From: a virus
Lineage: Duplodnaviria; Heunggongvirae; Uroviricota; Caudoviricetes
Virus record (IMG/VR): IMGVR_UViG_2648501920_000012
Direction: 5' to 3' (one strand)
Length of the DNA stretch: 4,936 nucleotides
Shown here: positions 2,515-4,936 of the stretch, piece after piece
How positions within the stretch are numbered: the first letter of the stretch is position 1
Layout of the letters: each line of letters begins with the position of its first letter
Translations under genes and position numbers: made by a program
The notes under the pieces: generated by a model
The model's database searches: none
What the model saw: the letters and a program-made list of their open reading frames with translations, nothing else
What the model was told of the DNA's origin: nothing

Positions 2515-2533
2515 ATTTTAAAACCCAAATTCG

Positions 2534-2560
2534 GGCACCAGAAATGGTGCCTTTTTTATT
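2534..2560 (+). terminator. Candidate rho-independent terminator or attenuator between J and the fibre gene
   Basis: Perfect 6-bp inverted repeat GGCACC (2534-2539) / GGTGCC (2546-2551) around a 6-nt loop AGAAAT, followed directly by TTTTTTATT (2552-2560). It begins 20 nt after the J stop codon. Confidence 0.5.
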
Positions 2561-2572: not shown

Positions 2573-4594
2573 ATGGCAGTACAGATTTCAGGTGTGCTGA
2601 AAGACGGTGCAGGAAAACCGATACAGAACTGCACCATTCAGCTCAAAGCAAAACGTAACAGCACCACAGTTGTGGTGAACACGGTGGCCTCAGAAAATCC
2701 GGATGAAGCCGGACGTTACAGCATGGATGTTGAGTATGGCCAGTACAGCGTCGCCCTGCTGGTTGAAGGTTTTCCGCCTTCACATGCCGGGACCATCACC
2801 GTGTATGAGGATTCTAAGCCGGGGACATTGAATGATTTTCTGGGCGCTGCAACAGAAGATGATGTTTGTCCGGAGGCACTGTATCGTTTTGAAAAGATGG
2901 TGGAAGAGGCGGCACGCAACGCTGAAGCCGCCTCTCAGAGCGCAGCGGCAGCAAAGAAATCAGAAACAGCAGCGGCATCGTCCAGGAACGCGGCGAAAAC
3001 ATCAGAGACGAATGCAGGTAACAGCGCGAAAGCGGCAGCTTCTTCAAAAACAGCCGCACAAAACGCAGCAACAGCGGCAGAACGTTCAGAGACAAATGCC
3101 CGTGCGTCAGAAGAAGCCTCCGCAGACAGTGAAGAGGCTTCCCGCCGTAATGCAGAGTCAGCCGCTGAAAATGCCGGAGTCGCCACCACAAAAGCGCGGG
3201 AGGCCGCAGCAGACGCAACAAAGGCCGGGCAGAAAAAGGATGAGGCTCTGTCGGCAGCGACACGAGCTGAAAAGGCGGCAGACCGCGCAGAAGCCGCAGC
3301 GGAAGTGACTGCAGAGCCCTGTGCGAATATAGTGCCGCCGCTGCCTGATGTGTGGATACCGTTTAACGATTCACTGGATATGATTACGGGTTTTTCGCCA
3401 TCTTATAAAAAGATAGTTATTGGTGACGATGAAATAACAATGCCAGGCGACAAGATTGTTAAGTTTAAACGTGCTTCAACAGCAACGTATATTAATAAGT
3501 CCGGCCAACTCAAGCTTGCTGAAGTTGACGAACCGCGATTTGAGCGCGATGGCTTATTGATTGAAGGACAGAGGACAAATTATCTGAGGAACTCAAATAA
3601 ACCAGACTCATGGACTGTTCATTCCGCACTGAATAAAACATTTGGCACTGATAAACAGGGGTTCAATTATGCCACGGTGACACCCACGGAAAGTATAGTG
3701 GGAACAACAGGTGGCTATACTGTGCATGGTGTGGTTGCAGCAGACAGATTCCCGCTGGCAAGTGGTGAATGTTTCACTTTTTCGTGCCGGGTTAAAGGCG
3801 CTAAAGCACGATGCAGGTTAAGAGTTTCAGTTATTATTGGTGGAACAGATACCTTCTCTGCTGACTCTTATCTTGATCTGGATACCCGGATCGCAACAGT
3901 AAGCGGTAATACATCCCTTATAACAGCCAAAGCTGAACAACAGGGCGAGTGGACCTACTATGAGGCCACTTATACAGCTAATACGGACATTGATACCGTT
4001 AACTGTGCTTTTTATATGACAAATAAAATAAGTAATGAGCCATTCTATGATGACTCAACATTAACCATGACGACGCCGCAAATTGAACTGGGCAATACGG
4101 CATCGTCATTTATTGTAACTACAATGCCAACAACACGCGCAAGTGATGTAGTTACTATCCCATCGCAGAATAACCTGTCAACACGGCCTTTTACGGTATT
4201 GTGCGAAGTAAGCAGGAACTGGAGTACACCGCCCAATGTTGCGCCAAGGATATTTGATGTTGGAGGGCACAGTATTGATGATAATTATTTATCGCTGGGG
4301 TTTGTTGCAACAGGAAAGATAAGCGCCAACGTAGGAATGGTTCAGCCACAAATTGCCTCAGATGGAGAAAGGTTCATTGTGGGTGTGAGAGCTAAATCTG
4401 ATTTATCAGTAAATGCAATATGCAATGGTAATTATACAACAAACCTTAATGGTAAAATATTTGGAGTTACAGCAACATCGTACCGGTTTGGTGGGCAGAC
4501 CGCAGCAGGAACGCGTCATTTGTTTGGACACATCAGAAATTTCAGAGTCTGGTTTAAAGAATTAAATGACAGGCAAATCAAGGAGGCAGTATGA
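2573..4594 (+). CDS. stf: Side tail fibre protein, lambda Stf-like N-terminus with a divergent distal (probable receptor-binding) domain; 673 aa
   Basis: ATG at 2573 is preferred over the in-frame GTG at 2567 used by the ORF track, because of the GGAG spacing and because lambda Stf begins MAVKISGVLKDG. The first ~100 residues (MAVQISGVLKDGAGKPIQNCTIQLKAKRNSTTVVVNTVASENPDEAGRYSMDVEYGQYSVALLVEGFPPSHAGTITVYEDSKPGTLNDFL) are near-identical to lambda Stf from memory. An Ala/Ser/Glu-rich low-complexity shaft follows (SETNA-type repeats), then a ~430-aa AT-rich C-terminal region I cannot match to lambda Stf. Stop TGA at 4592-4594. Confidence 0.9.
   Translation: MAVQISGVLKDGAGKPIQNCTIQLKAKRNSTTVVVNTVASENPDEAGRYSMDVEYGQYSVALLVEGFPPSHAGTITVYEDSKPGTLNDFLGAATEDDVCPEALYRFEKMVEEAARNAEAASQSAAAAKKSETAAASSRNAAKTSETNAGNSAKAAASSKTAAQNAATAAERSETNARASEEASADSEEASRRNAESAAENAGVATTKAREAAADATKAGQKKDEALSAATRAEKAADRAEAAAEVTAEPCANIVPPLPDVWIPFNDSLDMITGFSPSYKKIVIGDDEITMPGDKIVKFKRASTATYINKSGQLKLAEVDEPRFERDGLLIEGQRTNYLRNSNKPDSWTVHSALNKTFGTDKQGFNYATVTPTESIVGTTGGYTVHGVVAADRFPLASGECFTFSCRVKGAKARCRLRVSVIIGGTDTFSADSYLDLDTRIATVSGNTSLITAKAEQQGEWTYYEATYTANTDIDTVNCAFYMTNKISNEPFYDDSTLTMTTPQIELGNTASSFIVTTMPTTRASDVVTIPSQNNLSTRPFTVLCEVSRNWSTPPNVAPRIFDVGGHSIDDNYLSLGFVATGKISANVGMVQPQIASDGERFIVGVRAKSDLSVNAICNGNYTTNLNGKIFGVTATSYRFGGQTAAGTRHLFGHIRNFRVWFKELNDRQIKEAV
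2930..3300 (+). repeat. Low-complexity Ala/Ser/Glu-rich repeat region inside the fibre gene (shaft segment)
   Basis: Translation is dominated by degenerate repeated units (AAASSRNAAKTSETNAGNSAKAAASSKTAAQNAATAAERSETNARASEEA...). GCN-rich DNA of this kind produces long spurious ORFs in other frames and on the opposite strand (2832..3308 +, 2935..3189 -, 2814..3263 -). Confidence 0.6.
4579..4585 (+). promoter_or_regulatory. Strong Shine-Dalgarno (AAGGAGG) for the small ORF downstream of the fibre gene
   Basis: AAGGAGG lies inside the last codons of stf, a few nt upstream of the ATG at 4591; that ATG overlaps the stf stop as ATGA (4591-4594). Confidence 0.55.
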
Positions 4595-4693
4595 AAGATT
4601 TAACTTTGAAATTTCCTGGTAACAGAGAGTTTAAATCCTTCCTGTCATCTCTTGACTGGGAGGAGGATGAAGACCTCCAGAATAAACTGTTAG

Positions 4694-4716
<23 letters not shown>
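4591..4716 (+). pseudogene. Small ORF translationally coupled to the fibre gene, truncated by IS5; the native part is 4591-4693 (34 codons), the last 7 codons and the stop are read from the IS5 left end
   Basis: ATG at 4591 overlaps the stf stop (ATGA) and follows a strong SD. Translation is MKDLTLKFPGNREFKSFLSSLDWEEDEDLQNKLL, then GKVRTSP* encoded by the IS5 terminal sequence GGAAGGTGCGAACAAGTCCCTGA. I do not recognise the family; by position it could be a fibre assembly/chaperone gene or the first cargo gene. Confidence 0.6.

Positions 4717-4936
<220 letters not shown>

Follow-up and report, generated by a model that had tools for sequence, protein, structure and literature searches.

A widespread distal module of lambda-type side tail fibres in Escherichia coli prophages: a predicted pair of lectin-like domains with a probable role in glycan binding

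What forms the distal end of the side tail fibre encoded in IMG/VR virus record IMGVR_UViG_2648501920_000012 (Caudoviricetes), and what might it do at the surface of the host? The window, by which we mean the whole 4,936-nucleotide (nt) stretch analysed here, with all positions counted from its first letter, holds the 3' two thirds of a J tail-tip gene of lambda type (43-2514) and, directly 3' of it, the side-tail-fibre gene stf, an open frame of 673 amino acids (aa) running from the ATG at 2573 to the stop codon at 4592-4594, whose translation contains the peptides quoted in the original prediction. That prediction, made from the letters alone, had seen this gene switch from GC-rich to AT-rich sequence around 3300-3350, and had described what follows as a horizontally acquired fibre domain that it could not place in a known family. 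The analysis presented here indicates that nt ~3338-4594 would encode a connector and two lectin-like beta-sandwich domains at the distal end of a lambda-type Stf, and that this module probably serves, in an accessory fibre, as a lectin-like tip that binds a surface glycan reversibly ahead of J. It is a known kind of fibre tip, already labelled in RefSeq and with a homologue noted in print.

The family of the distal module is large. A homologue search against 1.84 billion cluster representatives (a 50%-clustered library) returned 1,364 relatives at E <= 0.001, 48 of them at E <= 1e-30, and a family alignment and profile were built from 58 sequences. The module matches the NCBIfam family NF048003, the gene transfer agent (GTA) head-spike-fibre domain, at 66.8-68.1 bits against a curated cut-off of 36 (E 1.4e-18), covering positions 1-181 of the 182 in the profile, and the RefSeq name of the protein is already 'phage head spike fiber domain-containing protein'. 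PHROG 1419, 'tail protein', is matched at E 8.7e-175 by the distal 431 aa, which span 348-793 of the 793 positions in that profile, and at E 1.5e-294 by the whole 673-aa protein. Against the sequences of the Protein Data Bank (PDB), a single-sequence search found no homologue (best E = 1), and the 58-sequence profile alone found some: the head-spike fibre Rcc01080 of the gene transfer agent RcGTA (E 1.4e-39), Shigella phage Sf11 gp17, in its C-terminal appendage (E 5e-18), and the baseplate wedge proteins Pa193 gp46 and E217 gp45 (E ~1e-15). The last ~140 profile positions match C-reactive protein and botulinum toxin HcN at ~1e-4 to 3e-3, and 33 of the 58 relatives match Laminin_G_3, with a best E of 1.9e-11. 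Given NF048003 above its cut-off, PHROG 1419, the RefSeq name, and occurrence in 517 complete genomes and 12 phage isolates, the statement that the domain fits no known family does not stand. Of the condition that the original prediction had set for its own refutation, a common, well-characterised tip of known receptor specificity, one half holds: the tip is common, but it is not a well-characterised one with an assigned receptor.

The composition of the distal 431 aa (Gly 7.7%, His 1.2%), together with a Pfam search that found no Phage_fiber_2 repeats in the distal part, agrees with the earlier remark that the Gly/His-rich repeats of the lambda Stf C-terminus are absent. Among the relatives, the N-terminal anchors vary (phage_tail_N, P2-type Phage_tail_fib, Phage_fiber_2, Tail_spike_N, collagen) and, as far as sequences can tell, are interchangeable. 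In some relatives (P0123, P0151, P0200) the module, or the first of its two jelly rolls alone, stands in tandem; P0151 has two complete copies, and P0200, a protein of 4,244 aa, has five partial ones.

The module is divided as follows, with domain limits set from profile matches and secondary structure:

3338..3580, + strand: conserved connector (PLPDVWIPFNDSL ... RASTATYINKSG ... EPRFE ... GLLIEGQRTN), the part of highest conservation in the 58-sequence alignment
about 3557..4141, + strand: first jelly roll, of the GTA head-spike-fibre type and resembling a carbohydrate-binding module (CBM), from NF048003, PDB profile matches, a weak CBM_4_9 match and an AlphaFold2 pLDDT (predicted local distance difference test) score >90
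4142..4582, + strand: second jelly roll, LamG/pentraxin-like (concanavalin A (ConA)-like lectin superfamily), the C-terminal end of the protein

The AlphaFold2 model from the family alignment is all-beta, with a pLDDT of 91.3 and a predicted template modelling (pTM) score of 0.86. Its Foldseek neighbours are jelly rolls of the ConA/LamG type, namely CBM40, pentraxins, botulinum toxin HcN and the baseplate wedge protein Pa193 gp46; Pa193 gp46 and E217 gp45 are aligned across both jelly rolls, and the strongest structural matches to small domains are sugar-binding modules such as CBM40. Both domains are thus modelled as jelly-roll beta-sandwiches of the ConA/LamG type. The original prediction had suggested a lectin-like beta-sandwich and had proposed structure prediction with structural comparison as a check; the model, the Foldseek neighbours (CBM40, pentraxins, baseplate wedge), and the profile and Laminin_G_3 matches agree with that suggestion, as a pair of domains. 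A ConA-like fold could also belong to an enzyme, a glycan lyase or hydrolase that degrades O-antigen or capsule. We regard this as very improbable, as no catalytic family is matched in Pfam or NCBIfam, and the invariant residues lie in frame segments and form no recognisable active-site motif.

The suggestion that the protein ends in an intramolecular chaperone, which would be cleaved off after trimerisation, fares worse and is scarcely credible here. Many fibre tips do carry such a segment (T5 pb1, endosialidases), and the product of a third gene in the relative Stokescottia has a Peptidase_S74 domain. In the stf protein itself, however, Pfam gives no match to Peptidase_S74 at E up to 1. The last residues form the final strand and helix of the LamG-like domain, as an integral part of it at pLDDT >90, and they are conserved, the module match stopping 0-6 residues short of the C-terminus in nearly all full-length relatives.

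Conservation in the family is restricted to three frame segments, namely STATYINKSG...EPRFE...GLLIEGQRTN, QIE..ASSFI..TR and RHLFGHIRNFRVW..L.D.Q. At the nucleotide level, the stretch 3299-3570 around the connector is about 80% identical to the alleles of phages 21, mEp460 and 4A7. Between alleles, each jelly roll has a hypervariable core, and for the first of them low conservation spans nt 3599-4078 in the alignment. A hypervariable core held in a conserved frame is as expected for a recognition surface.

The compositional break noted in the original prediction is real. Sliding GC content falls from 0.625 at 3101-3300 to 0.39-0.415 at 3301-3600, and the single maximum-likelihood GC change-point within stf lies at nt 3362 (0.555 to 0.424), with a score reached by 0 of 300 permutations. 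The alanine content of the rod that precedes the module (37%, with a GC content of 0.68 at second codon positions, GC2) accounts for part of the contrast. The break is not solely an amino-acid effect, because GC content at third codon positions (GC3) drops too, with a change-point at nt 3389 (0.482 to 0.357; score reached by 10 of 300 permutations). The sister phage ev017, which has the same backbone, delimits the exchanged part by sliding identity:

3398..4648, + strand: exchanged allele cassette relative to ev017, comprising stf codons ~276-673 and the first ~19 codons of the next gene

Identity to ev017 is 96-100% up to nt ~3397, falls to 40-70% (sliding values of 30-84%) from 3398 to ~4648, and is back at 98-100% over the next 1.5 kb, so that a cassette of ~1.25 kb has been exchanged. 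Both GC change-points lie just upstream of its 5' end. The 5' junction falls inside the conserved connector peptide PLPDVWIPFNDSLDMITGF and the 3' junction ~55 nt into the next gene; the cassette would have been acquired by homologous recombination, with one crossover in the connector and the other in those first ~55 nt. The composition, the permutations and the ev017 junctions thus uphold both the switch inside stf and its reading as a horizontally acquired module. The boundary given for it, 3300-3350, is placed too early, with the true junction ~60-100 nt further downstream. Judged by its sequence, the distal stf is a horizontally exchanged module.

Which phages and prophages share the C-terminal domain was a further question of the original prediction, and the answer is that very many do. 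Of the 5,426 complete E. coli genomes, 517 contain the identical DNA, and 505 records reach >= 99% identity; 12 lambdoid phages that have been sequenced contain it too (1H12, Lambda_2E9, the ev087 group and PhiR47_2). A database protein of 673 aa, identical over the distal 431 residues, is found on at least 1,000 contigs, and at least 120 matches listed in an unclustered protein search cover the query at 100% identity. Compared as protein, the module is found in 218 phage records, among them T5-like phages, Dhillonvirus, Seuratvirus/Nonagvirus-type phages, rV5-like myophages and Salmonella phages. Homologues of 30-60% identity form the ends of lateral fibres in T5-like phages, Dhillonvirus and other coliphage groups, and prophages with the module occur in Leclercia, Silvania, Buttiauxella, Atlantibacter and Aeromonas.

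Two relatives compare closely with the module. The first is Rcc01080 (GhsB) of RcGTA, the gene transfer agent of Rhodobacter capsulatus, homologous to the first jelly roll, with a profile match over its residues 44-280; this head-spike fibre binds capsular polysaccharide (PMC10218006). Rcc01080 differs in that it is alphaproteobacterial, sits on the capsid vertices and not on the tail, attaches by a 10-residue N-terminal peptide and, in its 325 aa, has no stretch matching the second, LamG-like domain. The second is Gp22 of the T5-like BASEL phage IrisVonRoten (Bas32), whose 'galectin-like' end is 43% identical over all 431 aa (E 5e-111). Lateral fibres of other T5-like phages, Dhillonvirus, Drexlerviridae and Queuovirinae carry the same module in the same C-terminal position, followed by the same gene for a protein of ~92 aa that overlaps the stop codon. 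In a predicted structure, the Gp22 tip protrudes from the end of the fibre and was described as a galectin-like domain, possibly an extra receptor-binding domain (PMC11990801). The anchor is of T5 Ltf type in Gp22, in contrast to the lambda phage_tail_N here; the variable cores also differ from those of the window, so specificity is presumably different.

Other comparisons reach less far. Lambda Stf shares the PF08400 anchor, the gene position after J and an accessory role in adsorption, but its distal part is unrelated, the stf of the window lacking the Gly/His repeats and any Phage_fiber_2 match; lambda also has the chaperone Tfa, whereas here a 92-aa protein of a different family follows. 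The baseplate wedge ('triplex') proteins Pa193 gp46 and E217 gp45 and the appendage of the Sf11 distal tail protein gp17 are homologous to the first jelly roll by profile comparison (E 5e-18 to 1e-15). They belong to the baseplate or the distal tail ring and not to a fibre tip, and no receptor role is assigned to them; the function of the Sf11 appendage is described as unknown. CBM40, pentraxins, clostridial neurotoxin HcN and AbnA domain 4 are alike only at the level of the fold, with 8-17% sequence identity. LtfA and LtfB of DT57C, which form experimentally characterised O-antigen-binding L-shaped fibres of T5-like type, were considered as relatives and rejected, at BLASTP E >1 against both proteins.

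We consider it reasonably probable, on this comparative analysis, that the distal module of Stf is a receptor-binding tip for surface glycans. As the fibre is taken to be a trimer, three copies at its end would attach reversibly to a polysaccharide of the cell surface (O-antigen, capsule or some other exposed glycan). This contact would use the variable loops of both lectin-like domains and would speed adsorption before the J tip engages the terminal receptor. There is a precedent in the lateral fibres of T5-like and small siphophages, for which O-antigen is a facultative first receptor (PMC8594841). The Stf fibre would be accessory and not essential. In phage 4A7 (NC_049946.1, L024:366-4792) and its relatives, the stf homologue is interrupted inside the LamG-like domain by an insertion element that has three transposase open reading frames (ORFs), and beyond which lie the 92-aa ORF and the sit genes; because 4A7 is an isolated, viable phage, its interrupted gene points to a fibre that is accessory or dispensable. 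The earlier claim that this region is the likeliest host-range determinant gains support in the form of a plausible host-range factor.

Several points weigh against a glycan-binding tip. For the window sequence, two Pfam matches stay below their gathering thresholds, at 20.8 bits against 27.6 for Laminin_G_3 and at 22.2-23.1 bits against 25.9 for CBM_4_9, of which only the last third of the profile is matched. The AlphaFold2 model is that of a monomer, the trimer arrangement being assumed. No ligand or binding has been reported in the literature for the protein or its close relatives, and both an Eligo lambda-vector paper and a Nature 2026 paper that mentions the PhiR47 phages are silent on this tip. 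ConA-like and LamG folds also bind proteins and can be purely structural, as in the baseplate wedges of Pa193 and E217, and in most relatives a small protein and a distal fibre gene follow the module, which may then be mainly a joint. Finally, the recorded host of PhiR47_2, which carries this very allele, is E. coli C. E. coli C is a rough strain without O-antigen; O-antigen binding is then not required for infection, if the host is truly rough.

The record on E. coli C also bears on a different receptor, a protein such as an outer-membrane porin in place of a glycan. Lambda Stf has been reported to use OmpC, and LamG, pentraxin and botulinum neurotoxin (BoNT) HcN-type domains make protein contacts in other systems. 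The module, however, has no similarity to the lambda Stf tip, its nearest functionally studied homologue binds capsule, the small domains that it matches best in structure bind sugars, and infection through J, with no part played by the fibre, accounts for growth on E. coli C. A protein receptor is, on balance, doubtful.

The genes behind the module raise a further possibility, and they also answer whether the module is always linked to the same downstream gene, as the original prediction had asked. The downstream features are:

4591..4693, + strand: partner gene phrog_1361 (~92 aa), first 34 codons; its start overlaps the stf stop (ATGA) and it is truncated by IS5
L005:4602-6332, L007:4789-6513, L006:4583-5462, also L009-L023 (positions in loci of relatives): third ORF after the module (distal fibre)
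4694..4936, + strand: left end of IS5, 100% identical to the annotated IS5 transposase of many E. coli genomes

In every backbone examined, and in 16 of 20 loci, the gene for an acidic protein of ~92 aa (phrog_1361) overlaps the stop codon of the module; its ORF is kept even at loci with replaced variable cores, and 144 phage records contain it. The protein belongs to no Pfam family, all 393 of its database relatives are labelled 'hypothetical', and a fold search with its predicted structure, made from database homologues, gave no informative neighbour. The protein is probably an assembly factor or adaptor that would stand in place of a Tfa-type or intramolecular chaperone. Outside the sit-prophage group, a third gene begins 10-13 nt after the small ORF and encodes a fibre protein of 146-576 aa. 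Several of these proteins share an N-terminal peptide (MVTKTVIP.DIT.LK or MANR.DSI.LT) and have varied tips, with Peptidase_S74 in Stokescottia and Phage_tail_C_2 in KarlBarth; some thus carry the intramolecular chaperone that had been sought in stf. As this third fibre gene adjoins in most relatives, the usual layout runs from a proximal fibre that ends in lectin-like domains, through a small protein, to a distal fibre. The sit prophages have no distal-fibre gene, and the slot is taken by an unrelated hydrophobic ORF of 97 aa (phrog_1443) and the sit operon. Neither phrog_1361 nor phrog_1443 has a Pfam assignment above threshold, and a tfa gene was not found downstream.

It could be, then, that the module is mainly a structural joint which, with the 92-aa protein, forms the docking platform for a separate distal fibre, as in a branched or two-segment lateral fibre. 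In the prophage of the window, the distal-fibre gene would have been lost and the module would be an orphaned joint with little or no receptor role, although a joint is compatible with a lectin. The position of the third gene and its shared N-terminal peptide agree with this, as does IrisVonRoten, where a gene for a T-shaped distal fibre, absent from the window prophage, follows the small ORF, and where that fibre, Gp24, is predicted to attach to the proximal fibre Gp22 (PMC11990801). The frame segments and the small ORF are conserved even where the cores are replaced, and the closest structural neighbours over both domains are baseplate wedge proteins, Pa193 gp46 among them with a fibre-attachment loop. 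On the other hand, hypervariable cores in both jelly rolls suit recognition more than they suit a fixed joint, and the RcGTA homologue, which has no distal fibre, binds capsule. In 505 complete-genome records of the sit-prophage group the module is intact and identical with no distal-fibre gene present; the same study of IrisVonRoten itself has the domain protruding from the fibre and possibly binding a receptor. A mainly structural role is unlikely on balance, and a glycan-binding tip may double as a joint for a distal fibre. The conserved three-gene joint is the most promising lead.

The remaining features of the window place this module in its phage:

2533..2552, + strand: terminator-like hairpin and T-run (GGGCACCAGAAATGGTGCCT) in the gap from the stop codon of J (2514) to the ribosome-binding site of stf, from a consensus scan and the sequence
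2573..2965, + strand: N-terminal anchor of the side tail fibre, the lambda-like part (Pfam phage_tail_N, PF08400)
2966..3337, + strand: alanine-rich rod, presumed to be a trimeric coiled coil (37% Ala, GC2 0.68)

The ribosome-binding site of stf is GGAG at 2564-2567, and a mechanical ORF call begins at the GTG at 2567. Late transcription would need to read through the hairpin to reach stf. The anchor scores 225 bits against PF08400 (gathering score 26.6; E 2.8e-67), and phage 434, mEp460 and many Stx phages share the first 359 nt of the ORF, counted from nt 2567, at 84-87% identity. The rod is shared at 96-100% identity with only about 24 phage records, and the part of stf upstream of the cassette, to judge from these identities, is also mosaic.

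In intact relatives (phage PhiR47_2, phage ev017 and the prophage of E. coli 118UI), the gene order is J, stf, the 92-aa ORF, the 97-aa ORF and then sitDCBA on the opposite strand, and from this order the window comes from a common sit-carrying group of lambdoid prophages. The sitABCD operon, for an iron/manganese transporter, forms a moron that follows the fibre genes immediately, on the opposite strand (L001:6969-10418, L002:7969-11418), and lies outside the window, beyond IS5. In E. coli 118UI (NZ_CP032515.1, L002:5275-7296), RefSeq splits stf into two 'incomplete' pseudogene fragments; over the distal 1,296 nt it does not differ from the window, where the frame is open, and in this comparison of the distal part the pseudogene call may reflect either an artefact of annotation or a genuine defect. 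IS5 has entered after TTAG, cutting the partner gene after codon 34, and its transposase ORF begins at ~4762. Identity of the window to PhiR47_2 stops at 4693, and the junction 4693/4694 is found in none of the 5,426 complete RefSeq E. coli genomes. The insertion in 4A7 is a second, independent insertion-sequence event at the stf locus. If the 92-aa protein is needed for assembly, the fibre of the prophage in the window is defective.

Side and lateral fibres govern how fast siphophages adsorb and which types of surface glycan they use, and their tips are the parts swapped when phages or cosmid delivery vectors are retargeted. The module described here is a compact tip for such engineering, with which no Tfa-type or intramolecular chaperone was found, and the exchange junctions, one in the PLPDVWIPFNDSL connector and the other within the first codons of the gene that follows, offer natural splice points for tip swaps. 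It is also among the commonest Stf tips of E. coli prophages, present in about one in ten complete genomes and usually adjoining sitABCD, and identification of its receptor would account in part for the host range of this very widespread group of prophages.

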